64,000 nt of DNA. Origin: Gemmatimonas sp. GTDB lineage: Bacteria > Gemmatimonadota > Gemmatimonadetes > Gemmatimonadales > Gemmatimonadaceae. Below the pieces are notes generated by a model that was given only the letters and a program-made list of their open reading frames with translations, was not told the DNA's origin and ran no database searches. The position numbers and the translations under genes were made by a program. The stretch lies in contig OZ257156.1 of NCBI GenBank assembly GCA_965279375.1, positions 4,480,001 to 4,544,000 of the forward strand, written 5' to 3'. Shown here in pieces: positions 2 to 60,428 of the stretch (the stretch's first letter is position 1; the number at the start of each line of letters is the position of its first letter).

Positions 2-1837
2 ATCGAAGAAGGTGGCGCGATCGATCCCACGCGCCACGCGATTCTCTGCGCAAACCTGCTCGGCGGCTGCAATGGCACCACCGGCCCCAGCAACGAACGC
101 CCCGACGCGCTGCCGCCGTTCACGACGCGCGATCAGGCCGCCGTGCTTGCACTTCTGCTCGACGCGCTTGGCGTGCAGCAGCCGCTGCTCGTCTGCGGTG
201 GTTCACTCGGCGGCATGGTCACCTTGGAGTTCGCCGCGAGCTTCCCGGAGCGCGTGCGCGGTGCCGTCGTGCTGGCAGCGCCCGCGGCACAAACAGCCCA
301 GGGCATCGCGTGGGGCGCCATCATGCAACGCGCCATCGAGATCGGAGGTCCCGAGCAGGGACTCGCGCTCGCCCGCATGGTCGGCATGCTCAGCTATCGT
401 ACGCCCGAAGGACTCGAACGTCGCTTCGGGCGGACGCGCGACGCCGACGGTGCGTTCCTCGCGTCGTCCTGGTTGCAGTCGCATGGCGACAAGCTCGTAC
501 AGCGCTTCGATGCCACCAGCTACGCCGCGCTACTGCGCGCGATGGATGCGCATGACGTCGGTCGTGGTCGCGGCGGCATCACCGCCGCACTCGCGCCCGT
601 TGCCGATCGCATCGTCGGCGTCGGCATTCCAGGCGACCTGCTCTATCCGTCGGAGTCGGTGCAGGAGTGGACGTCCTCCATTTCCGCCCAGTACACCGAT
701 CTCCCGTCCATCCACGGGCACGACGGCTTTCTGCTCGAAGCCGAGCGCGTCGCGACCATCATTCGCGCGGCAATCACGCGCGCGGAGTCGGTCGCACCGT
801 CGCGGCCACCAAGCGGCGTGTCCTCGCTGCGGATCGTGAACGCGAGTTCGCGCGATACGACGCGCTCGGCAAGCACGCGCACATTGCGCGTCGCGCTGGC
901 GGGATGCGGGCATGTTGGTGGAAGCCTGCTCGATCTGCTCGGCGAACGTGTCGCGGGCGAGGGCCCGCGTGTGGATGTCACGCGTGTCCTCGTTCGGGAC
1001 GCGTTGCGCCCGCGTCCCGCGTTGGCGCAGGCGATCGCGCGCGGCCTGGCGGCTGACGGCTCTCGGATCGTCGATCCGGCGATACTCATCGACGACGACG
1101 TGGATGTGCTGGTGGAAGCGATCGGTGGCACGACCACCGCGCGCACGTTGGTGGAAACAGCGCTCCGTCGCGGTATTCGCGTGGTCACGGCCAACAAGGC
1201 ACTGCTCGCCGAGCGCGGCACGCAGCTCGCCGCGCTCGCGCGCAGCAACGGTACGCGCATCGACTTCGAAGGGGCGGTGGCTGGCGCAATTCCGGTAGTG
1301 CGTTGCCTGCGTAGCGGCGCGGCCGGCGTCGGCATCACGCGCATCCTCGGCATTCTCAACGGCACCAGCAACTACGTACTCGAGCGCGTCGCCGAAGGCG
1401 CGTCGTTGTCGGAAGCCATTACGACTGCGCAGCAGCTCGGTTACGCAGAAGCTGACCCCACGCGTGATCTCTCGGGCGAAGACGTCGAAGACAAGCTCCG
1501 CGTACTCGCGTGGCTCGCCTTCGGAGCGGACCCGGCCAGCCTTACGGTGATTCGGCGCGGCATCGACGCCGAGACGGCCGCATGGGCCGCGCGCGCGGCG
1601 AAGGACGGCGATCGCGTCAAGTTGCTCGCGAGTTGCAGTCTGGAGAATGGCGAACTGGTGTCACGCATCATCCCCACGCGTGTGACCGGCGACGATGCAT
1701 GGGCCTCCGTCACCGGCGCATTCAATCGCATCGTGATCGAGAGCTCGTCAGCGGGCGCGCTGGTCTTTCACGGCCCGGGCGCTGGCGGCCGTGCAACTGC
1801 CGGCGCGGTACTCGGCGACTTGCTTACGCCGGGCTGA
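2..1837 (+). CDS. metX: Homoserine O-acetyltransferase (MetX-like alpha/beta hydrolase) fused to homoserine dehydrogenase; 5' end lies outside the window
   Basis: Frame is open from position 2 (IEEGGAIDPTRHAILCANLLGGCNGTTGP). It has the GGSLGG nucleophile elbow, GDLLYP and HGHDGFL, followed by the Hom motifs GCGHVG, VVTANK, FEGAVAGAIP, GILNGTSNY, GYAEADPTRD and GPGAGG. Confidence 0.9.
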   Translation: MEEGGAIDPTRHAILCANLLGGCNGTTGPSNERPDALPPFTTRDQAAVLALLLDALGVQQPLLVCGGSLGGMVTLEFAASFPERVRGAVVLAAPAAQTAQGIAWGAIMQRAIEIGGPEQGLALARMVGMLSYRTPEGLERRFGRTRDADGAFLASSWLQSHGDKLVQRFDATSYAALLRAMDAHDVGRGRGGITAALAPVADRIVGVGIPGDLLYPSESVQEWTSSISAQYTDLPSIHGHDGFLLEAERVATIIRAAITRAESVAPSRPPSGVSSLRIVNASSRDTTRSASTRTLRVALAGCGHVGGSLLDLLGERVAGEGPRVDVTRVLVRDALRPRPALAQAIARGLAADGSRIVDPAILIDDDVDVLVEAIGGTTTARTLVETALRRGIRVVTANKALLAERGTQLAALARSNGTRIDFEGAVAGAIPVVRCLRSGAAGVGITRILGILNGTSNYVLERVAEGASLSEAITTAQQLGYAEADPTRDLSGEDVEDKLRVLAWLAFGADPASLTVIRRGIDAETAAWAARAAKDGDRVKLLASCSLENGELVSRIIPTRVTGDDAWASVTGAFNRIVIESSSAGALVFHGPGAGGRATAGAVLGDLLTPG

Positions 1838-3440
1838 TGCTTGGAGCGACGGCCGTGATGTCGAACGCGGCCGTCTCCACGACACCGTTGCGCTTCACCT
1901 GCACGAACACGCGATAGCGCCCGGCCGTCGGAAACGCGAAGGGGAACGACAGCGGTCCCGCCGCATGCATGGCGTGCATCGGCGCATCCGCTTGTTCTTC
2001 GCCGGCGATCGCCCGCGCGATGCTCGCGGAGTCGAGGATCGCCGTGTCGCCACGTTCACGTCGCATCAGTTGCGCCTGCGCCGTCATACTTGCCGTCCCC
2101 ATCGGATGCAGATGCATGAAGACGGTCGCGTCGCGGCGCAACACCATCGCGTGTCCGGCCATGCCCATATACGGCTCCAGCATGGACGGCTTCCCATCGG
2201 CGTCCTGCACGGTCACCGTCAGTCGCAGGTCACGACCCACGCGCACGGAGCCATCGGTCGCACGACCCGCCGAGTCGATGGACATCGTGATGCTGCCGCC
2301 CGAGGCCAGCGGAGCCGCACGCCCCATCGCGGTCGGCACCGTGCTGCGCCACGCGTCGTCGCCATCGGCCACCGGCACCGCTCGTAACCCGCCCGCGGAG
2401 ACCGTCGGTGATGCCGCACTCGTCACCTCGTCGCCCACCACCACCGGCGCGACCGGCACATCGATGGTGTCCACGAGCGTGCGCTGCGCGCCGTTCTGAA
2501 AGAGCAGATCGCCGAACAGCAGATACCGCCCGGCAGGAACCGCGGGCACCTTCGTCACGAACGCGTCGGCCTCCACGCGCAGCGGATGGAGATGCGCGAT
2601 GGTTTGCTGCGCGTCGGCGTCCACCAGGAACAGGTGCATCAGCTTGCCGTGGTCGGGCATCAACGGCAGCAAGCGGTTAGACCGCCACAGCGAATCCACG
2701 ATCGTGATCGTCAGCACCCGGCTCGCATCCACGGAGCGAACGGAGGATTCGATGCGGAACGGCTTGAGGATGCTGCGGCTATACGCCGCCGCCTCCGCGT
2801 CCCACCACTTCGATCCTCCAAACAGCGCCAAGGCGAGCAGCGACGCGGTGGACGCGATCGCAATACGTGCGGTGCGACGGCGCGCGGTGGAGGGCGCATC
2901 GCCGGCAGGCAGCGAGCCCTCGCGCACGGCCGCTCCAACGATCGTGAGCAGTCCGGTCACCAGCAGCACGCCGAGCACGCCGAGTAGTACGGACATGCCC
3001 CGCGTCATCGCGAGCGTGCGAGTCGCCGCGGTCTGCATCGGCACGACCACGCTGCCGTTGCCAGCCGGTCCTTCCACGGAGACGTACACGGCGTACGTAC
3101 TCGCCGTCATGATCCACAAGTCGTGCGCCCACACGCCTGGATCACCGGGCACGAGCGCCGCCGCTTCCGCCGGTGGCGCGCCGTTGGTGCCGACATTCCA
3201 CTGCGCCGCCCGCACGGTCACACGCGTTGGCGTGCCCTCGAGTACGCGCACGCTGATCGGCACCTGGGCCGGTACAACGCCCGGCGGGTTGATCAACACG
3301 CGCACCGGATAACCGCCCGCGCCCCCTTCGAACACCACCTGACTCGTGCCCACGTGCGCACTGAGCAACATCCAACCCAACAACGCCGTGGAGACGATCG
3401 CCCAGTGCCGCACCACGCGTGCGCGCAGGCGAGCCATCAT
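1824..3440 (-). CDS. Exported/membrane-anchored His/Met-rich protein, putative copper-binding
   Basis: 538 aa ORF with an N-terminal hydrophobic segment, two further TM-like stretches, duplicated motifs MPDHGKLMHLF...AHLHP and EPYMGMAGHAM...MHLHPMG, plus MHAMH. 4-bp ATGA overlap with the upstream gene. Confidence 0.7.
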   Translation of the reverse strand: MMARLRARVVRHWAIVSTALLGWMLLSAHVGTSQVVFEGGAGGYPVRVLINPPGVVPAQVPISVRVLEGTPTRVTVRAAQWNVGTNGAPPAEAAALVPGDPGVWAHDLWIMTASTYAVYVSVEGPAGNGSVVVPMQTAATRTLAMTRGMSVLLGVLGVLLVTGLLTIVGAAVREGSLPAGDAPSTARRRTARIAIASTASLLALALFGGSKWWDAEAAAYSRSILKPFRIESSVRSVDASRVLTITIVDSLWRSNRLLPLMPDHGKLMHLFLVDADAQQTIAHLHPLRVEADAFVTKVPAVPAGRYLLFGDLLFQNGAQRTLVDTIDVPVAPVVVGDEVTSAASPTVSAGGLRAVPVADGDDAWRSTVPTAMGRAAPLASGGSITMSIDSAGRATDGSVRVGRDLRLTVTVQDADGKPSMLEPYMGMAGHAMVLRRDATVFMHLHPMGTASMTAQAQLMRRERGDTAILDSASIARAIAGEEQADAPMHAMHAAGPLSFPFAFPTAGRYRVFVQVKRNGVVETAAFDITAVAPSISPA

Positions 3441-4624
3441 CTCTTCACCGCGCGCAGCCAGTTACCCCAGCCCAGTCCAGCACGCGCGGAGAGCACCGCG
3501 AGCACCACCGCCATGGCGTAGCCGCGCACGGCGGCGCCGGCACGTTCCTCCATGAATTCACCGGGTCCGGCGATCCACTCCGTCGGCAGCATGTACGGAT
3601 AGTTGTCCGATCGGAACAGCGCGTTGTGCGACGCAGGAGTCAGCAGGAATTCTCCGAACGGCCACTGCACCGCCGCGAAGGCAACGAGAAACGTCAGCCC
3701 GAGCACCAGCGCGCGCGTCCACGCGCCACGCGTCGCAGTCGCACGCAACACGAGGTCAATCGCGAACGCCGGCACAATCAACAGCAACGGAAAATCGAGC
3801 GGCACCATGTGCGAGATCGCTTGCCGGATGGGCCCAAGCTTTGGCGTCGCCGCAAAGAGCGGGAGTAGCCAGAGCTGCGTGCACATCACGGCGAGATACA
3901 CAGCCGCCGTCGCCGTGGCCGGATAACGCAGTCGCGTGGCGCGACCCGCAGCGACCAGCACGAACGGAAACACCAGCGCCGATGTCGCGTAGAACACGCC
4001 GCTGTGCATCATGTCCGGCTCGTGATACTCGCTGGTGAAGATCGCCAGCATCGTCAACACAAGGCCACTCGTGTACGCCACCGCCCACGGCGCCCGCGTG
4101 CCTGCATCCACAGCGCCCTCGTCGCGCGCCTGCTCCGCGACCGCCAGCAGCAGCGCGCCCGCCAGAATCGTCAGGAAGCCCATCGCCAGGAGCGCGTGCG
4201 GCGGACTGATGATCTTCACATCGAGACCATACGCGGCATGCCACCAGTCGTCGAACGGCGCCGAGGTGAGCATCGCCACCGCGCCCCAGATCGCGAGCCA
4301 TCCGCCGAGTGGGCCGTTGAAGAGGCGCCAGATCGTGACGCCGTCTTTCGGTCGGGCCGATGCAAAGAAGGATCGGCGCAGCACTTCATATCCGCTCGCC
4401 AGGCCAGCCACCGCGCCACCGGTATAGATCGCGAGATGTGCCGGCGTCCAGAACGTGTCGCGGCCAATCGTCATGTGCCACGAGATGTCCCAGATCAATC
4501 CGACGATGACGCTCGTCGCAGCAAACACTACGGCGGCGAGCTGCCACGGGAACGCCAATCGGTCGGCTGACGCGCCGGTGACGGCGGTTCGCGCTCCCTG
4601 GTGCGGCATGACGGACGAACTCAT
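3437..4624 (-). CDS. Polytopic membrane protein with PmoC/AmoC-like metal-site motifs
   Basis: 395 aa with many hydrophobic helices; motifs DISWHMTIGRDTFWTPAH and DDWWHAAYGLDVKIISPPH; strong AGGAGGAG RBS upstream. Confidence 0.75.
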   Translation of the reverse strand: MSSSVMPHQGARTAVTGASADRLAFPWQLAAVVFAATSVIVGLIWDISWHMTIGRDTFWTPAHLAIYTGGAVAGLASGYEVLRRSFFASARPKDGVTIWRLFNGPLGGWLAIWGAVAMLTSAPFDDWWHAAYGLDVKIISPPHALLAMGFLTILAGALLLAVAEQARDEGAVDAGTRAPWAVAYTSGLVLTMLAIFTSEYHEPDMMHSGVFYATSALVFPFVLVAAGRATRLRYPATATAAVYLAVMCTQLWLLPLFAATPKLGPIRQAISHMVPLDFPLLLIVPAFAIDLVLRATATRGAWTRALVLGLTFLVAFAAVQWPFGEFLLTPASHNALFRSDNYPYMLPTEWIAGPGEFMEERAGAAVRGYAMAVVLAVLSARAGLGWGNWLRAVKR

Positions 4625-4683
4625 TGCTCCTCCTGCGGCGTACGGACAGCGCTGTGGAACGAGGGGACGCGCTCTAATCGAAA

Positions 4684-5970
4684 CTAGCGAGGCGGTCGAG
4701 GTGCAGCAGATCCGCCGATGCCACGAGCCCGCAACAGGGACACCACAGAGTCCACGGGCAACGGCACCACGCGTCCCGCACGGCTCTGCACCGGCGTCGC
4801 CATCAGCATCGCGTCATAGAGCGCTTCTTCCGTCGCCTCCACCACCGCCTGAAACACAGCCGACATCGCCTCGTTCCCCAACTCCTGCGCAGAGGCCAGT
4901 ACGGCGTCCGGATTGCGGCGCACCAACGGCGACGAGGAGAACGCCAGCACGTAGTCGCCCGACCCGTTCGACGCGGATGACCCGGTCCGGCCCAGCGCCA
5001 TCACGGCGCGTGCCGCCATCCGCTCGAGATTGCGCGACAACAGCGGCGCATCTGTTGCCAGCACGATCATGCACGAGCCGTCTCCGCGTTCCGCGCCCAT
5101 ATCGCCAGGACCAGGCGGTCGCGAGCCACCAGCGGGCGCCACGTCGCGCTGGAACGAGTACCGACCCAGCAGCTGCCCAATCGGCACCCCGCCCATCTGC
5201 AGCACCCCACCGAAGTTGCCCTGCACCAGCACGCCGATGGTGTAGCCGCCGAGCGATGCAGGCAGTCGGCGCGACGACGTGCCGATGCCTCCCTTCCAGC
5301 CGAACATGATGGTGCCGTGTCCCGCCCCGACACTCCCTTCGGCGACGGGGCCCGTGTCCGCGACGGCCAGCGCGCGTACCACCGCCGCACCAATCCCCAC
5401 GCGCGATCGCGTCGCGTTGAGTCCCCCGTCGTTCGTCTCGCCGACGATCGGATTGATCGATCGCACCGACCCGTTCTCCGGCTTCTGCAGCATCCACTGC
5501 GCGAGCGCATCGCCCGCCTGCCAGATGCAGAGCGTGCAGGAGAGCACGATCGGCGTCTCGATCTCGCCCAGCTCTCGCAGCTGCGTCACTCCCAGCAGCT
5601 TGCCGAAGCCATTCCCCACGTGAAGCGCGGCCGGCACGCGGTCGCGATAGAGGTCGCCGCCGTGCGGCAGAATCGCCGTCACGCCGGTCCGGAGCGAATC
5701 GCCCTCGCTGACGGTCGCGTGCCCCACGCGCACTCCGGGCACGTCGGTCAGCGCGTTGTGCGGCCCCGGCGTAAAAATGCCCGTTGCCAGTCCAATGGCT
5801 CGCGCTCGCGTCGGTCGGTTGGGAGTCGGCGTCTGCGCACCAAGGCTCCCCCCAAGCGCCGACGAGACGAAGAGAGTCGCGACCACAGTCGCGATCACGG
5901 TCACGAACATAGAATCGATCGTGGTGGCGAATTCCAACGGACGCCGAGCGAAAAGCGGGTTTGCGGGCAT
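4684..5970 (-). CDS. dmpA: P1/S58 family peptidase (DmpA-like aminopeptidase), probably exported; start could be 5910
   Basis: NALTDVPGVRVGH, TGVTAILP, NGFGKLLG, GETNDGGLN, EGSVGAGHG, WKGGIGTSSR and the GS autocleavage motif (GDGSCMIV). Confidence 0.88.
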   Translation of the reverse strand: MPANPLFARRPLEFATTIDSMFVTVIATVVATLFVSSALGGSLGAQTPTPNRPTRARAIGLATGIFTPGPHNALTDVPGVRVGHATVSEGDSLRTGVTAILPHGGDLYRDRVPAALHVGNGFGKLLGVTQLRELGEIETPIVLSCTLCIWQAGDALAQWMLQKPENGSVRSINPIVGETNDGGLNATRSRVGIGAAVVRALAVADTGPVAEGSVGAGHGTIMFGWKGGIGTSSRRLPASLGGYTIGVLVQGNFGGVLQMGGVPIGQLLGRYSFQRDVAPAGGSRPPGPGDMGAERGDGSCMIVLATDAPLLSRNLERMAARAVMALGRTGSSASNGSGDYVLAFSSSPLVRRNPDAVLASAQELGNEAMSAVFQAVVEATEEALYDAMLMATPVQSRAGRVVPLPVDSVVSLLRARGIGGSAAPRPPR

Positions 5971-6023
5971 GCGCGAAACTATCGCGCCTTCACGCGCTCC
6001 GTGGCGCCCGGCATATTGCGCGC

Positions 6024-7115
6024 ATGACGCTACGCCCGCTCTTCGGCCATCACGAGCTCCGCCAACGACTGGCGGCGGCGATGCATGACGGCCGCCTGCC
6101 CGCGAGTCTGCTCTTGCAGGGATCGCGCGGGGTGGGCAAGCAACGACTAGCGATCTGGCTGGGACAACTGCTCCTCTGCGAGCGAGCCGCCTCTGGTCGT
6201 CTGGTGGACCCCTGCGGCGAGTGTCAGCAGTGCCGCTATTCAGCCCGGCTCGTGCATCCGGATCTGCACTGGTTCTTCCCGCGGCCACGACTCAAGGACG
6301 GCGACGCCTCGCACGCCGACGTCGCCGCGGACCTCGGCGAAGCCATTGCCGAACGCCTGGAAGCCGACGGGCTCTGGGCCGCACCGCCCGGCTCGGACGG
6401 CATTCAGGTCGCCACGATCCGGGCGCTCGTGCACTCGGCGTCCGTTCGTCCCGCAATGGCCAAGCGCTCGGTGTTCATCATTGGGGACGCCGAGCGAATG
6501 GTGGCGCAGGAAGGCGCGGATCAGGCGGCCAACGCGCTACTCAAGCTGCTCGAAGAGCCGCCGCCCAATGCGACGCTGATCCTGACGACGAGCGAACCCG
6601 GTGCGCTGCTGCCGACCATCAAGTCGCGCGTGGTCTCGGTACGCGTGCCCACCGTACCGCGGGCCGATCTCGAGGAGCTTCTTCAGGATCCTGCGGTGCA
6701 GAAGCGACTTGGCTCCGCCTCGCGCGACGAGCTGATTGCCCGCGCAAGCGGCGCGCCGGGCATGCTGTTCGGCGTGGAGTCCACGGCCGGCGCGTACGCC
6801 GCTGCGCGCAAGATGCTCGAAGCCGCGTTGCAGCCGTCGAACCCCGCCGGGTCGGTCGAGCGTATCAAGACCGCCGCACGACAGGGGGTCGCCGGTGCGC
6901 GCGGTGCTTTCTCCGACATGCTCGACGCGCTGACCGTGCTACTGCATGACCGGGTTAAACGACTCGTCGCCGCGGGCCACGAATCCGACGCGCGTCGCGC
7001 CGCGTCGGCGATGTTGTTGATCGAAGATGCGAAGCTGCGCGCGCACGGCAACGTCAGTCCACAGTTGCTCAGTGCATCGCTGCTGCGATCATTACACGAC
7101 ACGCTGCGTCCCTGA
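6024..7115 (+). CDS. holB: DNA polymerase III subunit delta'
   Basis: GSRGVGK, zinc site CxxxxxxxxxxPCGECQQC, HPDLH, ANALLKLLEEPP, LLPTIKSR. Confidence 0.9.
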   Translation: MTLRPLFGHHELRQRLAAAMHDGRLPASLLLQGSRGVGKQRLAIWLGQLLLCERAASGRLVDPCGECQQCRYSARLVHPDLHWFFPRPRLKDGDASHADVAADLGEAIAERLEADGLWAAPPGSDGIQVATIRALVHSASVRPAMAKRSVFIIGDAERMVAQEGADQAANALLKLLEEPPPNATLILTTSEPGALLPTIKSRVVSVRVPTVPRADLEELLQDPAVQKRLGSASRDELIARASGAPGMLFGVESTAGAYAAARKMLEAALQPSNPAGSVERIKTAARQGVAGARGAFSDMLDALTVLLHDRVKRLVAAGHESDARRAASAMLLIEDAKLRAHGNVSPQLLSASLLRSLHDTLRP

Positions 7116-7151: not shown

Positions 7152-7664
7152 ATGGAAGAGTTCGCTGGGGCCCCGGATCCGTCCGCGCGGGAGTTTTCGC
7201 ACCTCGACGGGGGAGGGAAATTCCGGATGGTAGACGTCGCCGAGAAGCCGATTTCGGTCCGGACAGCGCTCGCCAGCGGTTGTATCCGGATGCAGCCGGA
7301 AACACTTAAAGCCATACAGGAAAACACGTTAGCAAAAGGCGACGTCGTTCCGGTGGCGCGCCTGGCCGGTCTTCAGGCCGCCAAACGGACAGCCGACCTG
7401 ATACCGCTCTGTCACCCGCTTCCGTTGTCGGGCATCGACGTCAGGGTTACCGTTGATGCATCCCTGCCCGGTCTCCGGGTCGAGGGTTTCGTCCGTACCA
7501 CCGCCCAAACCGGGGTGGAGATGGAAGCGTTGACTGCAGTGTCTGTGTCGCTGTTGACGATTTACGACATGGCCAAGGCAATTGATCGGTCGATGGTGAT
7601 CTCCGATATCGTGTTGCGCGAAAAGCGCGGCGGCACGAAGGGGGACTTCACCCGCGATCCGTGA
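7152..7664 (+). CDS. moaC: Cyclic pyranopterin monophosphate synthase
   Basis: SHLD..G..RMVDV, KGDV, AAKRTADLIPLCHPL, TGVEMEALT, TIYDMAKAID. Confidence 0.96.
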   Translation: MEEFAGAPDPSAREFSHLDGGGKFRMVDVAEKPISVRTALASGCIRMQPETLKAIQENTLAKGDVVPVARLAGLQAAKRTADLIPLCHPLPLSGIDVRVTVDASLPGLRVEGFVRTTAQTGVEMEALTAVSVSLLTIYDMAKAIDRSMVISDIVLREKRGGTKGDFTRDP

Positions 7665-7688
7665 ACGTCTCGAAGAAGCGAGGTTCCA

Positions 7689-8501
7689 ATGCACGATACA
7701 GCTGTTGCAGTGCGTAGTCTTGAAGCGCGTGCGCGACGCCGGCGGATGCATCGCCGGTCTGCCAAGCGCCGTTTGTCCCAGGTGTTTCTGCCGGCCGCCG
7801 GTTTGCTCGCTCTCGCGCTGTTCCTGACGCCCGAGCCGTCACCGCGCACCACGCCAGGCGTCGCCTCAGATAGCACGACCGCCGTCGGCCCGCTTGCCGT
7901 GCAGCCGTCGTGGCGCCCCGCCGGATCCGTCTTGCTACGTCGTCCGGAATTGCGTCAGCCGCCCGTGACCCGTTCCGACTCTGCGAACGCGTTGCCGTTT
8001 GGTCTGGCACCGCGCACCCTCGCGTCGGCCGACTCGCAGCCACGTGAGTCGATCAGCCGCTGGCATCGCATCTATACCTACACGGCGCGCTACCACATCC
8101 GCACGGACCTCGCGCGTCGCATCTACGATGCCTCCATCGCCGCTGGCATCGAGCCGGAGCTCGGCTTCCGTCTGGTCCGCGTCGAAAGCGTCTTCGATCC
8201 GCGCGCTCGTTCGGCCGCAGGTGCGCTCGGCCTGACGCAGCTCATGCTCGGCACGGCGCGGGCGTTTGAACCCAAAGTCACGCGCGAACAGCTCCTCGAC
8301 CCCGACGTGAACCTGCGGATCGGCTTCCGCTACCTTCGCGGGCTCATTCGCGAGTACAAGGGCGATCTCAAGCTGGCGTTACTGGTCTACAACCGCGGCC
8401 CAGGCGCGGTGCAGAGCGCGCTCAGCATGGGCGTGAATCCCGGCAACGGCTACGACAGTCTGGTGATGCGCGGTTACCGAGGTCGCGGCACCCTCGACTG
8501 A
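7689..8501 (+). CDS. Lytic transglycosylase, SLT domain
   Basis: VESVFDP.A.S.AGALGLTQL, NLRIGFRYL, ALLVYNRG; N-terminal TM segment. Confidence 0.85.
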   Translation: MHDTAVAVRSLEARARRRRMHRRSAKRRLSQVFLPAAGLLALALFLTPEPSPRTTPGVASDSTTAVGPLAVQPSWRPAGSVLLRRPELRQPPVTRSDSANALPFGLAPRTLASADSQPRESISRWHRIYTYTARYHIRTDLARRIYDASIAAGIEPELGFRLVRVESVFDPRARSAAGALGLTQLMLGTARAFEPKVTREQLLDPDVNLRIGFRYLRGLIREYKGDLKLALLVYNRGPGAVQSALSMGVNPGNGYDSLVMRGYRGRGTLD

Positions 8502-8524
8502 TCTGCGACGAACCACAAAGAAAG

Positions 8525-8549
8525 AGGCGCCCTACCGGGCGCCTTTTTT
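8525..8549. terminator. Intrinsic terminator between the convergent transglycosylase genes, probably bidirectional
   Basis: Stem AGGCGCCC-TACC-GGGCGCCT followed by TTTTT, with an A-rich run on the 5' side. Confidence 0.7.
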
Positions 8550-39505: not shown

Positions 39506-41278
39506 CTATGGTGCGCAGGTGAAGGCGCCGCTGTTCACGAGGTTCGCAACAGCTCGGAGCTGCGCGTCCGTGGTCGCCAGGCGTTTCGCGGCGCGCAACG
39601 GAGCGCAGGCTTTGTCTGGCTGATCCGCCATTCCGTACGCCGTGACCATGTACACGTACGCAAACGTGCTATCGGCCGAACTTGTGAGCTTGCCGAGTGC
39701 CGCTTGAAGCTGAGGTATCGCATCACGCGCAACCGCGGGCGCCTCCGCCTCTTCCGCGTTCGCCAATGCGCGCTTGACGGCTTCGAGCGTGCGGCGGGCC
39801 TCCTCCGCGCCAGCAGTCGACGGGGCAGCAGGCGGCGTTGCCGCGGGCGCGGCGTCCACCGTCGCCGGTGCCGATGGCGTTGCCGGCGCTGACGCAGCCG
39901 CGCCGCCGCTTGCTGGCGGCTTGGTGCCGCCCGATGGCGAAGCGTTCGCGGGCGGCGCGGTGACGTTCGGCGGCATCAACGCCGAAACCCCCGCCGAATC
40001 GAGTGCGCCCGGCGTGGCCACAGCGGGAGACCCACTTCCCCGCAGGAAGAACGCCGCCGCTCCTACTACGACGGCGCCCACAACGGCGAACAGCACACCG
40101 CGCGACGATCCGGACGCGGCGGGTGCGGCCCCCGTGCCAGCGGCTGCCGCGGGCGATGCCGCCGCCTTCGCAGGCGAACTCTCTGCCTTCTTGGGTGCGG
40201 TCGTCTCCTTCCACTCCACCGTCGAAGCCACCGCCGGCGCAACCGCCGCGGTGGACATCGGCGTTGGCGAGAGCGCCGCACTCGACAGCGGCGTCCGCGT
40301 GCGCAACACCGACGATCCAATCCACGCTTCGGTCGCCGCGACCACAGCGTCCGCGAAATCGAGTGCCGATGCCGTGCGCGCATCCGGCTCGCGCGCCAGC
40401 GCGCGCGTGAACGCCGCCTGCAACGCCTCGGGCCACGCCACCTCGGGCACGCCCTCGGCGAGCGTGCGCGGATCGCCCACGATGCGCGCGGTCAGACTGC
40501 GCTCCGGTGAGCTCGAATCGAACGGCAGCACGCCCGTGAACATTTGGTAACCAACCAACGCCAACGCGTAGACGTCGCTGCGCGCATCAAGCGGCTCGCC
40601 AAACACCTGCTCGGGGCTCATGAACTCCGGTGTGCCAATCACCGAACCGGCCTGCGTGAGCTGCGTGCGCTGTCCCTGCGTGCCATCCACCACCTTCGCG
40701 ATACCAAAGTCCACCACCTTGGAGCGATCGATGCCGCCCTCTTCGGTGATGACCATGATGTTGTCTGGCTTGAGGTCACGATGCACGATGCTCATGCGAT
40801 GCGCGGCGTCGAGTCCCTCGGCGACCTGGAAGATCAGGTTGGCCGCGCGCGCGGGGGGCAATCGCGGCTGCTCCTCGAGAATGTCGCGCAGCGTTCGCCC
40901 CGGCACGAATTCCATCGCGAGATAGACGAGCCCATTGCTCGTCTCGCCGAAATCGAAGACACGCGCCACACGATCGTGCTCGATGCGCGCCGCGTTGGCC
41001 GCCTCACGGTTAAACCGCGCCACCGCCGCCGAGTCCTGCACCATGCTGGGGTGCAACACCTTAATGGCCGCCTGCTGCGGCAGGCGCACGTGCCCCGCCA
41101 GATACACACGGCCCATGCCGCCCTCGCCCAGCAGCTTGCTGATCAGATAACGATCGGCAATGACGGTACCGATGAGATCGGCATTCGTTTCGTCGGCGCG
41201 GAGCGTGGTGCCGTCAGCGGGGCAGAAGGCGTTGCTGTCTGGATACGTGGTATTGCAGATCGGACAGGTTTTCGGCAT
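39506..41278 (-). CDS. Hanks-type Ser/Thr protein kinase with an N-terminal zinc ribbon, one TM and an extracytoplasmic helical domain
   Basis: CPIC...FCPADG; LGEGGMGRVY, AIKVL, HRDLKPDN, DFGIAK, GTPEFMSPEQ, SDVY. Confidence 0.95.
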   Translation of the reverse strand: MPKTCPICNTTYPDSNAFCPADGTTLRADETNADLIGTVIADRYLISKLLGEGGMGRVYLAGHVRLPQQAAIKVLHPSMVQDSAAVARFNREAANAARIEHDRVARVFDFGETSNGLVYLAMEFVPGRTLRDILEEQPRLPPARAANLIFQVAEGLDAAHRMSIVHRDLKPDNIMVITEEGGIDRSKVVDFGIAKVVDGTQGQRTQLTQAGSVIGTPEFMSPEQVFGEPLDARSDVYALALVGYQMFTGVLPFDSSSPERSLTARIVGDPRTLAEGVPEVAWPEALQAAFTRALAREPDARTASALDFADAVVAATEAWIGSSVLRTRTPLSSAALSPTPMSTAAVAPAVASTVEWKETTAPKKAESSPAKAAASPAAAAGTGAAPAASGSSRGVLFAVVGAVVVGAAAFFLRGSGSPAVATPGALDSAGVSALMPPNVTAPPANASPSGGTKPPASGGAAASAPATPSAPATVDAAPAATPPAAPSTAGAEEARRTLEAVKRALANAEEAEAPAVARDAIPQLQAALGKLTSSADSTFAYVYMVTAYGMADQPDKACAPLRAAKRLATTDAQLRAVANLVNSGAFTCAP

Positions 41279-41367
41279 ACGCTAGTACTTTTATCCTATT
41301 GACGCCGTACCTGAACAAGCACGACGTTAGGGTGGCAGTTCGACGATTCCACTTGAGAGGTGTCTGC

Positions 41368-42093
41368 ATGTCCGTGACGCATACCGGTCGGCGTTGGCCC
41401 GGCCTCCTGCTGGCCGCGAGTCTCGCCGCCGCACTTCCGCTCTCCGCCCAGTCTTCCGCAGCGGATTCGCGGCCGACCGTCGCCATCATGTACTTCAACA
41501 ACGGCTCGATTCTCGACAACGCGTCGTACGCGCCGCTCAGCAAAGGCATGGCCGATATGCTGATCAGCGAGATCGCGCAAAATGGCGCCGTTCGCGTCGT
41601 TGAGCGTGACCGCCTGCAGTCGCTCATCGAAGAGCAGAATCTGCAGAACAGCGATCGGGTGGACAAGGAGACTGCCGTGCGTCTCGGCAAGCTGCTTGGG
41701 GCCCGTCACATTCTGATGGGCGGCTTCGTCATCGACCCCGCCAAGAACATGCGCATCGACGTGCGGTCGGTGAACACGGAGACGTCGGCCATCGAGTACA
41801 CCGAAACGCTGACGGGCAAGTCGGACAAGCTGCTCGAGCTGGTGATTCAGCTGGGCGCCAAGGTCAACGCGGGACTCAAGCTTCCGGCGATGAAGACGGC
41901 CAGCGCGACGATTCCTGCCGCGAAGAGCCCGAACCAGTTCAAGGCGCTGATGGCCATGAGCCAGGCCCTCGAAGCGGAAGACAAGAAGAACCCCGCCGAG
42001 GCGTCGAAGCTCTACAAGAGTGCAGTGGCGCTCAATCCTGATTTCGATCGCGCCAAGTCTCGGCTCGCGTCGCTGGAGAAGATCTCGCGCTAA
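41368..42093 (+). CDS. Exported CsgG/HfaB- or TolB_N-like protein with a C-terminal TPR-like segment
   Basis: Signal peptide; TVAIMYF, VVERDRLQSLIEEQ, AVRLGKLLGARHILMG, RIDVRSVNTET; YKSAVALNPDF. Confidence 0.8.
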   Translation: MSVTHTGRRWPGLLLAASLAAALPLSAQSSAADSRPTVAIMYFNNGSILDNASYAPLSKGMADMLISEIAQNGAVRVVERDRLQSLIEEQNLQNSDRVDKETAVRLGKLLGARHILMGGFVIDPAKNMRIDVRSVNTETSAIEYTETLTGKSDKLLELVIQLGAKVNAGLKLPAMKTASATIPAAKSPNQFKALMAMSQALEAEDKKNPAEASKLYKSAVALNPDFDRAKSRLASLEKISR

Positions 42094-42138
42094 GTCGGAA
42101 GGTCGCTGCCGCACCTCGGTAGCGATGAGAGAAACGAG

Positions 42139-42174
42139 AAGCGCGTGTCGATCGGTCGATCGACACGCGCTTTT
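42139..42174. terminator. Intrinsic terminator between convergent genes
   Basis: Perfect 16-bp inverted repeat AAGCGCGTGTCGATCG-GT-CGATCGACACGCGCTT, then TT. Confidence 0.8.
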
Positions 42175-42213
42175 GTCTGCCTAGGCTTCGAGGAACGCAC
42201 CGCCGAATGGCGC

Positions 42214-45200
42214 CTAGTTTTCCTTGAAGGCCACGGTGATTGCCAGCGGTCCATTCGCCATCGGCGTGCACACGGCGCCGGTCTGCACCGCCGCCGGCGC
42301 GCAGTCGCCGCCCCAACGATCGAAGACGGTCTCGGCGCCCGGCAGCGCCGCAATGCGAAGTGCGGTTCCCATCGGAACCATCACGGTGCACTTGTTCGAC
42401 TGATTGGGCGCCGTGATCGCGCACGCCGTCGTTCCGTTCAAAGTCACGGTGCCGCTCGTACCACGGATCGCCGTCACCGTGATCTCCACTGGCACGAGCA
42501 GATCGAACGTGCCCGACACCGCCGCGGCGACAGTCGGCGTGAGGGTGCACGACGTGGCACCGACACACGCTCCGGTGAATCCTGAGAACGCCGACTCTGC
42601 GCCCGGCACCGCCGTCAGCACGACGGGCGCGCCGATCGTGACGAGGCGCGCGCAGGTGGCACTGCCCCGCGACACCGTCAGCGCGCAGAACGGCGCGCCG
42701 TCGATGAGCACCGAACCACCGCCCTGCCCCGAGAGCGAAAGCGTCAGCGGCACCTGCCGCTGGGTGAACGTTGCCCCCACGGTGCGAGCCGCGGTGATGG
42801 CCAGCGTGCAGCGTCCGGTGCCGCCGCAATCACCCGAGAACGCATCGAAGCTCGAGCCAACCGACGCAGCGCCCTGCAAAACCACACTCGATCCGACATC
42901 GGTCAGTCGCGTGCACGTCACCGTTGACTGACCGAGCGCCAACGCGCACGCCACCGAGCCGTCGACTGAAATGCTGCCGGCGCCGGTACCAGTCAGCGTC
43001 ATCGTGAGCGGAACCTGACGACGGCGGAAGGACGCCGTTGCGGTCATCGGTGACGCGACCGAGAGCGAGCAGGTCGCGCCGCCGATGCAGGCACCACCAA
43101 ATCCATCGAACAGCGACTCCGTTGTCGGCGTGGCGCCGAGCACAATCGTCGAGCCGACATCCACCAGCCGCGTGCAGGAGGATGCACCCTGCGTGAGCGT
43201 CATCGAGCACGCGGGCGCGCCATCGACCGTCACCGCACCGGCACCCGTGCCACTCAACTGCAGCGTCAGCTGCACCTGGCGACGCGTCATCGTCACGGAC
43301 ACGGTACGCGGCGCGTTCATCGTCACGTTGCAGTTGAAGCCACTGCAATCGCCGCCGAATCCGCCAAAGGTCGATTCAGCACCGGGCGACGTCGAGAAGC
43401 TGACGACGGTGCCAGCGTTGACCAACCGCGTGCACGTCACGGCAGTCTGTGCGAGCGTGGAGGCGCAACTGCCGCCGTCCGATGCGGTCACGCCACCCGA
43501 ACCAGTGCCAGTCAGTGCAACGGTCAGCGGGTACTGCGTGACGCTGAAGGTCAGGCTGACTGTTTGCGGCGCGTTCATCGAGACCGTGCACGCGCCGGTG
43601 CCAGTGCAAGCGCCGCCAAAGCTGGCGAACTGCGAACTGGTCGCCGCCGTGGGCACCACCGTCACCGACGAACCCGCATCGAAGGTCTGCGTGCAGCTCG
43701 TCGTGGTTTGCTGCGAGGACAACGTGCAAACGAAGCCGCCCGGCAGTGTGGCGCTGCCCTGGCCGGGACCGTTGAGCACCAGCGTCAATGCCACCTGCCG
43801 CCGACCGAATGTCGCGACGACGTTGCGCGTTTGCGAGAGCGTGGTGGTGCAGGTGTTGGACTGTCCGCTGCACGCGCCGCTCCATGCGGTGAAGCTGGAG
43901 TTCGCGTCGGGAATGGCGGTGAGCGTGATCGACGTGCCGAAGGTCGCGGCCTCGGTGCACGTGCCGGTGTTCGCCCCTGCCGCTCGCGCGCACGCGATCG
44001 TCGAACCGCCAGTGACCAATCCGCTGCCGACGCCTGCTGGCGTCACCGTGATGCGCTGGGCATCGAAGAATCGCGCCGAGGCGGATACGGCGGCCGCGCC
44101 CGGCGTCACGGTGCACGTCGCACCGGTCGCACTCGCGCAGTCGGCGCCCCACCCCGCAAAGAATTGCTGTGTGCCACCCGTCGGCAGCGGCTCGCCAACG
44201 GCGGTGAGCTGATACGGCGCGCCTTCGGGCGTATCGACGGCGCAGGTGCCCGAGGTCGCAGTCGGTGTGATGCGGCAATCCAATCCGTTCGCTCCGGTTA
44301 CCCGACCACGACCGTCGGTGCCTGCGGCCGCGCTCACCGTCAGCCGGCGGAGCGCGGCGAATCGCGCGGTCGCGACACGAGCCTGCGACATCGTGACCAC
44401 GCACGTCGTGGAGTTCGTCGCCGATGCGCACGCATCACTCCACGCACCGAACGCGCTGCCCGGATCGGCCGTGGAGGTCAACGAAACCGTGGACTCGCCG
44501 GTGAACGAGAACGCGCAGGTTCCGCTCAATGCGGCGCCGGCCACCTTGCAATCGATACCCGCCGGCGTCGAGCGAACCGTGCCCGTGCCCGCACCGGTAC
44601 CCACGTTGATCGTCAACAGGACGGGAGGGCGCTGCACGCGCACCGACACCACCTTGATCAGCGTGCCAATGCGCGCGGAGATCCGGGCCGTGCCCAGCGA
44701 CACGCCGGTGATCACGCCCGTTGCGCCATTCACCGTCGCAACCGTCGGCTCGTCCGAGCTCCACACGACACTGCGATCGGTCACCAGCTGTCCGCGCGTA
44801 TCGAGCACGCGCGAAGTGAGCGTGGTGGTTGCGCCAAGAATCACCGGCACCACGTCCGTCGCCTGCACCACTGCGCTGCCACCCTGCAGCACTTCCACCG
44901 ACGCCAAGTCGATGAGCGTCACCGGCTGCGTCACCGTCGTCGTCAACCCGGGCGCAAGGCGCAGCGGACCAACGACCTGCTCATCGACGATGGAGCCATT
45001 CACCAACAACGAGAGATTGAGCACCACCGCACAGGAGGCGCTGGTGCTGTTGCCGCTCGCGCTCACATCGCGCGCCGGATCGGACAGACAGGTGCCGACA
45101 TCGACAGGAATCGGCACCGCTTGCGACGACTCGCTCGTGAGTGTCAGCACCTGTGACCCGATGCGGACGCTGCTGCCGTCCTGCCGCAGATACGAGGCCA

Positions 45201-45432
45201 CGACGTTGAGCGACACGACGTCGGTCGCGGTGGCAACCTTCCGCGGCACGCTCGCCGTGAAAGCGATCGTCGCCGGACCCGCCGAGCCTTTCTTGCCTGG
45301 CGAGAGCATGTCACCGCAGGCCGCCGTCACCGCGAGCGGCAAGACCAGCGCCGCGATGCGCCATTGGCTCGCACGTCGGAGAACGGAGTGACACAGTGCC
45401 TGCAGCTGCATGGACATCGAGAAGGTGCGCAT
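42214..45432 (-). CDS. Large surface lipoprotein: Big_2-like Ig domain plus nine Cys-containing InlB B-repeat-like units (start 45432-45447)
   Basis: Lipobox TAAC; VVWSSDEPTVATV...G..TGVSLG; nine ~88-aa units LT....G.G.G.V...C..C....F..(W/F).G.C...C. Confidence 0.82.
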   Translation of the reverse strand: MRTFSMSMQLQALCHSVLRRASQWRIAALVLPLAVTAACGDMLSPGKKGSAGPATIAFTASVPRKVATATDVVSLNVVASYLRQDGSSVRIGSQVLTLTSESSQAVPIPVDVGTCLSDPARDVSASGNSTSASCAVVLNLSLLVNGSIVDEQVVGPLRLAPGLTTTVTQPVTLIDLASVEVLQGGSAVVQATDVVPVILGATTTLTSRVLDTRGQLVTDRSVVWSSDEPTVATVNGATGVITGVSLGTARISARIGTLIKVVSVRVQRPPVLLTINVGTGAGTGTVRSTPAGIDCKVAGAALSGTCAFSFTGESTVSLTSTADPGSAFGAWSDACASATNSTTCVVTMSQARVATARFAALRRLTVSAAAGTDGRGRVTGANGLDCRITPTATSGTCAVDTPEGAPYQLTAVGEPLPTGGTQQFFAGWGADCASATGATCTVTPGAAAVSASARFFDAQRITVTPAGVGSGLVTGGSTIACARAAGANTGTCTEAATFGTSITLTAIPDANSSFTAWSGACSGQSNTCTTTLSQTRNVVATFGRRQVALTLVLNGPGQGSATLPGGFVCTLSSQQTTTSCTQTFDAGSSVTVVPTAATSSQFASFGGACTGTGACTVSMNAPQTVSLTFSVTQYPLTVALTGTGSGGVTASDGGSCASTLAQTAVTCTRLVNAGTVVSFSTSPGAESTFGGFGGDCSGFNCNVTMNAPRTVSVTMTRRQVQLTLQLSGTGAGAVTVDGAPACSMTLTQGASSCTRLVDVGSTIVLGATPTTESLFDGFGGACIGGATCSLSVASPMTATASFRRRQVPLTMTLTGTGAGSISVDGSVACALALGQSTVTCTRLTDVGSSVVLQGAASVGSSFDAFSGDCGGTGRCTLAITAARTVGATFTQRQVPLTLSLSGQGGGSVLIDGAPFCALTVSRGSATCARLVTIGAPVVLTAVPGAESAFSGFTGACVGATSCTLTPTVAAAVSGTFDLLVPVEITVTAIRGTSGTVTLNGTTACAITAPNQSNKCTVMVPMGTALRIAALPGAETVFDRWGGDCAPAAVQTGAVCTPMANGPLAITVAFKEN

Positions 45433-45443
45433 GTGAGTGCGCC

Positions 45444-46736
45444 TCAAAAGCGAGACGAAATGACGAGGCCGAGTCCGGCCCCGGTAAACGAGCGTGACGG
45501 CTTGTTTCCTGTTGGCGTGCGCTGAGTGAGCACGCCCCCCTGTGCGCGTACGTACGGCTGCACCGACATCAGGCTGCGACGCAAGTTCACGCCGAACGTC
45601 AGCGTCGCGCTACGCACCCCAGCAGTCGGCAATCCAAGGTCGACGCCGAGCCCGGAGTGCCAACGCGCGTCGGTCGAAATTACGAAGTCACGTCCGACTG
45701 CCCACGGCAACACGGTGCGCGCGCCTACATCGACGTACTGACCACCGGACTTCTCCACCGTCAGCCCATCTCGCGCGAAGGGCGCCCGCCAGCGATACGC
45801 GGTGTATGCGAGCAACTCACGCACATGCGGCGCCGCAATCTGCAACTGCGCATCCGCACTCAGCACGGGCCCAAGCCGGACCGACGCGATACTCGGCCCG
45901 CCACGCCCGGCCGCATCTGTCGCAATATCGGTCGTCAGCTTGTCCTCGGCGAATACATCTGCGGCAAGCGCGACGATCAACCGATTGGCGCCAACGGTCC
46001 GATCGCCGCTGACCGACGCGCGAATGACTCCGCCGGGGGTGAAGTCGGCCGTGGAGGCTCCCACCGTCAGCGCGGCGAGCGGCTGGTAGCGTCCGCGCAC
46101 CTCGTACGAACCGCCGTAGGCCATCGCCCACTTGCCCAGCTGCTGCGGCACGACGAAGCCGAGCGTTCCGCTGGGGCCGGAGCCGACCGAAGTGCTGCCC
46201 ATGCCGAGCGCCGGCGCACCAAGCACGCGCAGCGTGGCGAACTCCGGCACCGAGAGCGCAGTACGCCCAGTCGGTGCATTGAGCCCCACCGTGAAAATCA
46301 GGCCATCGCCCCACACCCGCCCGGAAGCGCGAACGCGCACATCACTGACGCCGCCGAGCGACGCGGTGCGTGTGCCGCCCTGTGCCGCGGGGTCGGTATA
46401 GGTGATGCTGCCACGCGAATACAGCGCAGTGATATCCATTCGCCAGCCGCCGATCGGGACCGCCGTGGTAATCGGCAACGTGAACTGCTGCACCTTGGTC
46501 AACCGTGTGGAGTCGAGCCCTGCGAAGCCCGTCTGCGGAATGCCGCCGCCACCGAACGAGATCGATTCGAAGGACATGCCCGCGCCGAGCGCACGCGTCC
46601 CGACGAGACGATCCTGCGCGTGCGCGGAGCCGGCGGTCATGAGCATCGCGGCGACGAGGGTCGCCCACGGCGCGACGAACCAGCGCTGATCGACTGCCTC
46701 GGTCCGCAACGCCGCGTGGGGCGCCTCATGATTCAT
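45444..46736 (-). CDS. Putative outer-membrane beta-barrel protein
   Basis: Signal peptide (AHA-QD), many alternating-polarity strands, C-terminal GLVISSRF. Confidence 0.6.
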   Translation of the reverse strand: MNHEAPHAALRTEAVDQRWFVAPWATLVAAMLMTAGSAHAQDRLVGTRALGAGMSFESISFGGGGIPQTGFAGLDSTRLTKVQQFTLPITTAVPIGGWRMDITALYSRGSITYTDPAAQGGTRTASLGGVSDVRVRASGRVWGDGLIFTVGLNAPTGRTALSVPEFATLRVLGAPALGMGSTSVGSGPSGTLGFVVPQQLGKWAMAYGGSYEVRGRYQPLAALTVGASTADFTPGGVIRASVSGDRTVGANRLIVALAADVFAEDKLTTDIATDAAGRGGPSIASVRLGPVLSADAQLQIAAPHVRELLAYTAYRWRAPFARDGLTVEKSGGQYVDVGARTVLPWAVGRDFVISTDARWHSGLGVDLGLPTAGVRSATLTFGVNLRRSLMSVQPYVRAQGGVLTQRTPTGNKPSRSFTGAGLGLVISSRF

Positions 46737-47761
46737 GGACGACGGATGGTCACCACGACGGTGACGACCGTGCTCGGGAAGGAGGGATCACCCACTCCGC
46801 CCGAAGGACGTGTCAGCGACGTGATGAAGTCGAGCGGGCGATTCAGCCGATCGATCGTGCCCGTCTCCGGCGCGTTGATCGCCCGTACACCCGGCAGCAG
46901 CGCCGGAGGAACCGCCGCTGCCCGCGCGATGCTCTTGAGCTGCGACGCTCGGTCGCCCGCCGCCTGAAACGTCGGCGTCAGACGCGAGGCCTGCTCGAAC
47001 TCCTGAATCGCGCGCCGCCGATCACCGGCGAGCTCCGCCTGCACTCCGCGACCATACGCCGTCAGCGAGGCGAGGCCGACCGCCGGGCGATCCTCGATGC
47101 GCGCCCGCTCCGCCGGAGTGAGCGTGACCCCCAGTGCCTCGAACAGTCGGAACGCCACGGCCTTTTCCGCCGCCAGGATATCCGCGAACGAAGCGCGTGC
47201 GTCGAGCGCGGACTCCAACTCGCCCGTCTCGACATCCGCCACCCGCGCCGACAATCGCAGCTCACCACTGGGCAGCGTGTCGAGTGCGCCGAGCACGAGG
47301 CGCCGGGCGCGCAACAGCTGACCAACGCGCGGCGCCGTCGAAGAATCGACTCGGCCGGTCTTCGTCAGGTCGAGCTCGCGGAGCACCTCGCTCAGACGCG
47401 AACGCTCCACCAGCTGCAGCTGCGCGCTGCGCGACAGGTCGGTGACGAGCAAATCGGAGAGCGCGAAGCCCAGGGAGGTGAGGCGCGCGTCGTTGGAGCT
47501 GAGGCGAAAGGGCGTGACGCCGACCGTGCCCGCGGCTGCACCGGCGCCACGTTCACGAGCAAGCGCGGCGGCAGATGCCGAGTCGATGGCGACGCGGCTG
47601 GTGACGGCGGGCGTGCGGGGACCGGCGGAGGCGCAGGCGCCGAGCAGGAGCGCGCCAATCGATGCGACGCCTAACGTCGCGATGCCGCGGATCGGCAGGC
47701 GTGCTCCAGTCTGCTCGCGGCGTCGCACCAGTCCAACGGACCATGCGGACTTCGGTGTCAT
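46733..47761 (-). CDS. CsgG/HfaB-like lipoprotein with a TPR-like segment (start uncertain)
   Basis: Lipobox LGAC; TVGVTPF, LVERSRLSEVLREL, TAPRVGQLLRA, RLSARVADVETG; AYGRG...FEQASRLTPTF. Confidence 0.78.
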   Translation of the reverse strand: MTPKSAWSVGLVRRREQTGARLPIRGIATLGVASIGALLLGACASAGPRTPAVTSRVAIDSASAAALARERGAGAAAGTVGVTPFRLSSNDARLTSLGFALSDLLVTDLSRSAQLQLVERSRLSEVLRELDLTKTGRVDSSTAPRVGQLLRARRLVLGALDTLPSGELRLSARVADVETGELESALDARASFADILAAEKAVAFRLFEALGVTLTPAERARIEDRPAVGLASLTAYGRGVQAELAGDRRRAIQEFEQASRLTPTFQAAGDRASQLKSIARAAAVPPALLPGVRAINAPETGTIDRLNRPLDFITSLTRPSGGVGDPSFPSTVVTVVVTIRRP

Positions 47762-47833
47762 CTCTTCAAACGGATCGTGAGGGCCACCGCGCCGTTCAGG
47801 CGCGGTAGTGCAGATCACCATATACGAGAGGGA

Positions 47834-56020: not shown

Positions 56021-56078
56021 GCGCGGTGCCCCATGCGGTTGGTTGCCAACGTGTCGCCTGTTGCACATACTCTGGTCC

Positions 56079-57438: not shown

Positions 57439-57492
57439 TGTCGCAGCGGTGCGTTTCGCGCTGCGGCACCATGTGCATTTCGGCATTTCGTC

Positions 57493-58971: not shown

Positions 58972-59011
58972 CCGAGTGTTAGCCACGCGCTAACCGCGCA
59001 TTACAGCGAGA

Positions 59012-60394: not shown

Positions 60395-60428
60395 GCCTGA
60401 CCGGCGATCGCTATCGTGTGCGGTGACA

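Follow-up and report, generated by a model that had tools for sequence, protein, structure and literature searches.

Copper membrane monooxygenases (CuMMOs), such as particulate methane monooxygenase (pMMO) and ammonia monooxygenase (AMO), are built from three separate subunits, C, A and B. Their protomers assemble into a trimer. The B subunit has a cupredoxin fold and carries the CuB set, formed by its N-terminal histidine and an HxH motif in its first domain, and the C subunit carries the CuC and CuD sites, which are about 8 Å apart in AMO. According to the accessible text of PMC13058606, a lipid is found between CuC and CuD in AMO, the catalytic copper site and the origin of pMMO and AMO are open questions, and recombinant expression has resisted attempts. 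A divergent archaeal CuMMO has been found with an amoA/pmoA hidden Markov model (HMM) in Candidatus Angelarchaeales, presumed heterotrophs, where it is encoded by separate genes in the order C-A-X-B (PMC9038741, accessible text). Here we describe a two-gene locus in a 64,000-nucleotide stretch of Gemmatimonas sp. DNA (the window; contig OZ257156.1, positions 4,480,001 to 4,544,000), in which a PmoC-like core and a PmoA-like domain are joined in one open reading frame (ORF), gene 1, and a periplasmic partner is encoded by gene 2. The locus resembles the Angelarchaeales enzyme in being divergent and in belonging to a probable heterotroph, but it differs in its fused gene; the accessible text of PMC9038741 contains no word starting with "fus".

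Gene 1 is located at 3437..4624 on the minus strand, as are all features of the two genes given below, and encodes a membrane protein of 395 residues. Its AlphaFold model has a pLDDT of 93 and consists of ten long helices. A Shine-Dalgarno-like AGGAGG (4629..4634) is situated 4 nt 5' of the ATG; no promoter-like site was found at the locus, and terminators occurred at chance level. Residues 25–170 (4115..4552) form the PmoC/AmoC-like core, a four-helix bundle made of two helical hairpins. Motif 1 (4436..4489) contains the CuC-equivalent triad Asp-46, His-50 and His-63, and motif 2 (4196..4252) contains Asp-125, His-129 and His-143 at the CuD position, with an aspartate in place of the asparagine. 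The first-pass annotation of this DNA, which described an orphan PmoC/AmoC-like protein retaining both metal sites, had given the ORF, both motif positions and the 79 residues separating the motifs (D46-H63 and D125-H143) correctly. Of the genome's 15,277 ORFs, counted from stop to stop, a strict two-motif pattern matched gene 1 alone and a loose pattern matched two, so that the motif pair is more than a chance occurrence. Judging from Lys/Arg counts and the even number of helices, both termini would lie inside, and the six ligands as well as Glu-199 and His-207 outside.

Conservation was assessed in a family alignment of 106 out of 270 proteins (29 close and 77 divergent), which were picked for length. 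Asp-46 and His-63 are present in all 106 rows and His-50 in 98, and the second triad is kept nearly as well, with Asp-125 in 103, His-129 in 96 and His-143 in 98 rows. The six residues are thus conserved among homologues, as the first-pass annotation would lead one to expect. The same does not hold for the additional His/Met patch, EYHEPDMMH (4004..4030), to which it had drawn attention. Here only Glu-199 (75 of 105 rows) and His-207 (96 of 106) are well kept, and His-201 (19 of 106), Met-205 (11 of 106) and Met-206 (59 of 106) are mostly or often replaced.

The relationship to the C subunit emerges from several sequence comparisons. When the Protein Data Bank (PDB) was searched with the single sequence, the sole match was AmoC (E 0.032), covering both motifs; with the family profile, all five matches were AmoC or PmoC, the best with E 4e-4. 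Weak Pfam matches are most often to AmoC, in 16 of 106 rows, while the runner-up family appears in 3. The Pfam AmoC/AMO cut-off is not reached, and the best family member has an E value of 0.0011. An hhalign comparison with ten canonical PmoC/HmoC sequences from fetched operons gave E 2.8e-5 and aligned all six residues, in register, with their CuC and CuD counterparts, Asp standing for Asn. The shared features with PmoC/AmoC (PF04896; 9CL6_C, 9PXF_G, 9LEG_C, 6CXH_C, 7S4M_C) are the D-x3-H-x12-H spacing with its RDT core, the second x-x3-H-x13-H triad and a four-helix core at the outer face. The earlier count of 11 matching positions out of 18 in motif 1 is obtained with AmoC 9cl6_C, and 10 of 18 with one PmoC sequence. 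In contrast to PmoC/AmoC, the gene 1 product has the Asp at the CuD position, lacks the extra N-terminal helices, is fused to the A-like domain and falls below the Pfam cut-off. The PDB matches and the hhalign register support the proposal that the protein is distantly related to the C subunit of CuMMOs. As to the two sites, the CuC-type triad matches, whereas the CuD-type triad corresponds by position and spacing only; motif 2 alone aligned with the PmoC CuD stretch at E 0.05 and is closer to motif 1 than to that stretch. In the ESM Atlas, the whole product led to unnamed clusters only, and residues 20–170 led to AmoC clusters at 0.88, which serves as a lead only. The gene 1 product matched no Pfam family, and an NCBIfam HvfX match (E 0.027, 14.6 of 80 bits) was discarded as noise.

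The two hairpins of the core align with each other with a probability of 89% (E 2e-6, 48 columns), compared with 0.1% for the reversed control. In the actinobacterial clade described below, the hairpin-hairpin probability is 97.6%. No such match is seen between the corresponding halves of PmoC (0.5%, 10-row alignment). Because the motifs belong to an internal repeat, motif 2 is a second copy of the Asp-His-His set at the CuD position. The visible repeat points to a duplication as the origin of CuC and CuD, with the gene 1 family keeping the symmetric state. A literature search found no paper on such a duplication.

The second half of the gene 1 product, residues 171–395 (3440..4114), forms a PmoA/AmoA-like domain. 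The five top-ranking Foldseek matches are pMMO/AMO chains (220–274 residues, probability 1.00). In the VIA comparison, ranks 1–12 are pMMO/AMO chains with Z scores of 11.7–12.7, where values below about 13 are weak for helical bundles, and the next unrelated row has a Z score of 8.6. These matches cover residues 170–395, with 197–216 residues aligned and an rmsd of 4.0–6.2. The matched chains (218–274 residues) were assigned to subunit A from chain label and length. An hhalign comparison with ten PmoA sequences runs collinear to the C terminus over 203 columns (E 0.0014) and places Glu-199 on the invariant Asp of the GDW motif; the score was 32, against 12 for the reversed control. The fold is shared with PmoA/AmoA (PF02461; 6CXH, 7S4H, 3RFR, 9CL6, 9LEG) over about 200 residues, but the identity is 12–16%, there is no Pfam match, the DWKDR motif is not kept, and the domain is located behind a C core. 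As the two halves lead to the same enzyme, in the order C-A, chance is hard to invoke. Gene 1 is a fusion of a PmoC-like core and a PmoA-like domain, and its common ancestry with PmoC and PmoA is very probable. The extra C-terminal helices of the first-pass annotation form this PmoA-like domain.

Residues 174–395 also match the S-components of energy-coupling factor (ECF) transporters (5EDL, 4Z7F, 5D0Y, 4RFS, 4DVE), which have a similar six-helix fold (Z 7.4–10.3). The identity to these is 8–13%, and neither an ECF ATPase nor a T gene ranks within the 25 most frequent neighbour families. With better structures for comparison, PmoA outscores the S-components. Most simply, PmoA, the C-terminal half of gene 1 and the S-components share one fold, with PmoA nearest. 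The double match hints that PmoA itself is S-component-like, and no paper containing these terms was found. In one genome the gene occurs in two pieces that meet at the C/A junction (G162:C123:1074-2226; profile 20–179 and 173–398), and in two others the A-like half alone was matched (G262:C54:8972-9625 and G299:C81:8846-9580). These three cases are possibly split forms or frameshifts.

Gene 2 (1824..3440) encodes a protein of 538 residues, and its ATG overlaps the stop codon of gene 1 (ATGA). Its signal peptide (3357..3440) ends in LSA before a His, and cleavage at this point is suggested by a pattern of a small residue followed by H[VI]G. By this pattern, 73 of 80 related loci have a downstream ORF with a signal peptide and H[VI]G. 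Three further partners were recognized by tblastn and reading, three loci end at a contig edge and one (L064) has no partner. The partner adjoins the gene 1 homologue in 76 of the 77 loci with room for it. A near-obligate, overlapping partner makes this a two-gene system and not a lone C subunit. The term orphan is rejected because the A subunit is fused in the same chain and a His1 partner gene nearly always follows. In L030 the partner is apparently frameshifted (7194–8548), and in L064 it is absent beside the gene (after 7221).

The mature partner starts with an Ig-like β-sandwich (N-domain, 3027..3356) that contains the invariant residues His-1, Trp-81 and Met-83. Two membrane helices follow (mature residues 119–146 and 157–195; 2772..3002), and then two periplasmic β-domains (1848..2759) that are homologous to each other with a probability of 94% and weakly YtkA-like. 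These carry invariant H..H and HxHP motifs (His-236, His-241, His-255 and His-257; Met-399, His-402, His-415 and His-417). In 65 rows, His-1 and eight further His/Met residues are invariant. His-1 is the sole conserved His of domain 1; there is no HxH in that domain and hence no CuB set. The likeness to PmoB/AmoB (PF04744) is one of topology only: a signal peptide, a mature His-1, a β-domain, two membrane helices and one or more further β-domains, with B third in the gene order. The differences are the Ig-like domains, the HxH in domains 2 and 3 and not in domain 1, and one extra domain. PmoB was absent from the top 50 matches in three fold searches with a 510-residue partner model, a result that does not rule out a PmoB likeness. 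A true PmoB homologue was considered and finds no support in either the profile or the fold matches.

A model of the complex, with zinc included, scored 0.75 against 0.09 for the best control; the mark for this score was reached by 116 of 157 solved pairs and 2 of 215 mismatched pairs, counts that are only rough for our own alignments. Between runs, at least 93% of the contacts are the same, and the pLDDT of the partner is at least 83. In the model, the first membrane helix of the partner packs on helix 106–127, the third helix of the C core, and its N-domain (residues 27–30, 52–62 and 81–84) covers the CuD-side loop 130–141 and Arg-55. The model supports binding of the gene 1 product to its partner.

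The family lies outside the known CuMMO families, being below their cut-offs, fused and without a CuB set, but it is built like one. The six ligands and their conservation, the A-like half and the coupled partner are observed; the first proposal, that a probable heterotroph has here an enzyme using copper or a protein handling it, is plausible. We favor an arrangement in which the products of genes 1 and 2 would form one membrane complex, a deep and compact branch of the CuMMO superfamily, and we put the probability of a two-copper redox enzyme at roughly 0.5. The two Asp-His-His triads would lie at the outer face of the four-helix bundle and may hold a two-copper center like that of CuC and CuD, and the A-like half may provide a lipid-facing substrate pocket. 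The HxHP domains of the partner could gather periplasmic copper, and the His-1 domain over the CuD-side loop could load the site and possibly relay electrons. The two-copper center would then activate O2 with electrons derived from the membrane, with quinol as the presumed donor by analogy to pMMO. The substrate would be membrane-borne or hydrophobic, with a lipid-like envelope compound or a small hydrophobic molecule as the likeliest candidates, and is probably neither methane nor ammonia oxidized for energy. The accessible text of 10.64898/2026.08.31.748207 describes a four-helix C core in archaeal AMO also, together with a one-domain B subunit.

A number of results weigh against this enzyme reading. 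On the side of the C core, the PmoC profile score survives block shuffles in full, so a single block, motif 1, carries it. PmoC scores by fold only Z 6.7, below generic four-helix bundles, and in a wide fold search the best matches of the N-terminal half are generic bundles (cytochrome b561, Z 10.7). For the A-like half, the PmoA hhalign probability is only 18–31%, and one block shuffle out of 40 exceeded the score. The same wide search gave an ECF S-component Z 10.3, above the Z 7.9 of the sole PmoA chain listed, an entry that is also a low scorer in the VIA comparison. The gene 1 model had no Foldseek match at E ≤ 0.001, and the actinobacterial C-terminal half has no profile match to PmoA. 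Nor does the partner show profile homology to PmoB (hhalign probability 1%, 9-row alignment). Between 8 and 10 of the 106 rows lack His-50, His-129 or His-143 and have E, D or Q instead; such rows may represent a subfamily that binds a different metal or no metal. The 80 two-gene loci have no conserved neighbor with a catabolic or electron-transfer function, and the copper islands around the actinobacterial copies fit copper handling equally well.

A true alternative monooxygenase for methane, ammonia or short alkanes in heterotrophs, for example in heterotrophic nitrification, could explain the six C-subunit ligands, the A-like domain and the partner of B topology in C-A-B order. We consider it the least probable of the explanations weighed here. 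The host genome is a single contig that is 99.95% complete, and its best PQQ alcohol dehydrogenase candidate reaches 192 of the 480 bits of the TIGR03075 cut-off. No PF13447 (Hao-type) match was found in the host, in a search without a positive control, and no dehydrogenase is a conserved neighbor. In a quick tree, a very long branch separates the family from bacterial PmoC/HmoC. As first noted for pmoA and pmoB, the window contains no separate pmoA, pmoB or pmoC, and neither does the complete genome, which gave no AmoC, AMO or Monooxygenase_B match and nothing under E 0.1 with our own PmoA, PmoB and PmoC profiles. The PF02461 search was positive in 4 of 151 other genomes.

The main rival to the enzyme reading is copper handling, which we hold to be possible and rank clearly second. 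Here the partner would capture periplasmic copper through His-1, HxHP and Met residues and pass it on to the triads in the membrane to buffer copper, to detoxify Cu(I)/Cu(II), to import the metal or to load other cuproproteins. The complex would be a non-oxygenase relative, possibly of the kind from which CuMMOs arose. The partner N-domain is nearest to CBM56, CrdA (Z 10.5; profile E 0.06) and CopC (Z 8.8), and weak matches of the partner at E ≤ 0.01 were to YtkA in 8 of 65 rows and to CopC in one. The S-component fold of the C-terminal half is in line with such a role. In CopC/CopD, YcnI/YcnJ, YtkA and CrdA, too, a periplasmic His-1 β-domain is coupled to a polytopic membrane protein. The gene 1 product differs from CopCD and YcnIJ in its CuMMO C/A architecture, and CopD is not among its matches or the 25 families listed for the 106 rows.

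Further evidence on copper handling comes from an actinobacterial one-gene form. Plasmid matches led to actinobacterial proteins of 475–489 residues that fit the family profile with E 1e-21 to 1e-27. Relatives of this form number 513; in each of the best 120 both triads are complete and an A-x-A-like site within the chain is followed by a His. The layout is a C core, an A-like part, an internal signal-like helix, a His-first β-domain and a tail helix (ORFs L091:6052-7497, L092:5950-7377, L093:5977-7446, L099:8001-9434 and L100:7962-9452; also L102-L180). The domain behind the internal His shows a weak match (E 0.001, 76 columns, probability 21%) to the N-domain of the partner together with its first helix. 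The presence of a membrane part and a His-1 domain in one chain ties the two functionally, and the sequence pattern suggests that internal cleavage could free the His-1.

All five plasmid regions with a full-length gene contain copper or metal genes, such as those for P-type ATPases, HMA, multicopper oxidase, cupredoxin, YHS and CopY/BlaI-type repressors; a sixth region, with a partial match, has none. Similar copper/metal families turn up repeatedly in the surroundings of 69 metagenome loci; the script centered a few of these loci on the wrong ORF. The islands thus speak for copper handling, but other neighborhoods do not. No copper family is found on either side among the 25 commonest neighbor families of the 80 two-gene loci. 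The commonest actinobacterial neighbor is TetR, by family not a copper sensor (30 of 265 ORFs in the 69 de-duplicated loci). According to the accessible text of PMC9195940, loss of the plasmid from S. mirabilis hardly changed copper tolerance; the tag number of the gene does not appear in one supplement file of that paper. The idea that the family replaces CopD was dropped, CopD being found in 29 of 48 carriers and 85 of 153 other genomes, and so was a link to nosZ (14 of 48 against 68 of 153), which the host genome lacks. In these counts kin are not independent, and the unpublished genomes G332, G248 and G307 are included. The TetR subfamily (L102:1280-1918 and similar) is mostly divergent from the one-gene form and has conserved His residues in its ligand domain (FH, YxHLRxxHxW); from these it is a possible metal- or substrate-sensing repressor.

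Asp-His-His is a general divalent-metal set. Since both triads are of this type and not copper-specific, the same scaffold might instead serve an enzyme that uses a metal other than copper, such as a Zn- or Fe-dependent membrane hydrolase, transferase or lipid-modifying enzyme. The envelope enzymes Lgt, NlpC/P60, polysaccharide deacetylase and VanY-like peptidase do recur near actinobacterial copies. The free N-terminal His, the His/Met motifs, the CrdA/CopC-like fold and the copper islands favor copper, however, and we regard this alternative as unlikely.

In the quick tree, the actinobacterial clade joins the two-gene family. The tree is unrooted and lacks archaeal AmoC, and the order of events cannot be read from it. 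A bolder form of the enzyme reading, which we consider doubtful, is that the family is a sister group or a living model of the CuMMO ancestor. Duplicated Asp-His-His hairpins would have become CuC and CuD, an S-component-like domain would have become PmoA, and His-1 would act as a cap. The family would then be an active two-copper oxygenase in cultivable heterotrophs, encoded in Actinobacteria by one gene whose His-1 is freed by internal signal-peptidase cleavage.

No paper describing the family was found by title or abstract start in a literature search whose coverage largely leaves out subscription journals. The fused branch of the CuMMO superfamily is apparently undescribed, and its function is proposed from sequence. 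New here are the internal repeat of the metal motifs and the actinobacterial clade in which the membrane part is fused to a domain beginning with His after A-x-A, in copper islands. A fused two-gene relative with both candidate copper sites offers a tractable model and an outgroup. If the ancestor-like oxygenase reading were true, an expressible one- or two-gene system would be at hand to test CuC and CuD as the catalytic site. If copper handling were true, the family would be a widespread unnamed module, showing a role of the monooxygenase scaffold before or besides gas oxidation. Standard Pfam/NCBIfam annotation misses the family entirely, and the results indicate a large, so far unstudied branch of copper monooxygenase-like enzymes.

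The family is large: with an E value limit of 0.001, it takes in 7,919 of the 8,000 candidates scored and 2,041 clusters at 50% identity. Named relatives are mostly from Gemmatimonadota, Acidobacteriota, Bacteroidota and Verrucomicrobiota, and the family is present in cultured Bacteroidota and Actinobacteria; cultured carriers include Mucilaginibacter arboris, Chryseolinea serpens and a soil Streptomyces. Of 201 genomes sampled from the phylum of the host, 48 have the gene (one unpublished). A search for a short stand-alone form returned mostly apparent fragments, and a viral fold library gave no match at E ≤ 0.001. There is no conserved third gene: the most frequent neighbor family accounts for 3 of 141 ORFs upstream and 5 of 127 downstream, these ORFs having been picked by our own composition filter and only their first 330 residues used.

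In the window, a peptidase S58 (DmpA-like; 4684–6288, minus strand) lies 59 nt upstream of gene 1 on the same strand, and it is a neighbor in three close loci only. On the plus strand, an ORF that enters from the window edge (143–1837) encodes a MetX (homoserine O-acyltransferase) domain fused to homoserine dehydrogenase. Positions 39509–47821 contain a Ser/Thr kinase, a CsgG-like protein and a 1077-residue surface protein with InlB-B repeats; two ORFs in 45447–47821 have no Pfam match at E 1e-12. A carotenoid-related cluster at 55797–60502 consists of a Caroten_synth protein, a phytoene-desaturase-like flavoprotein and a cytochrome P450.

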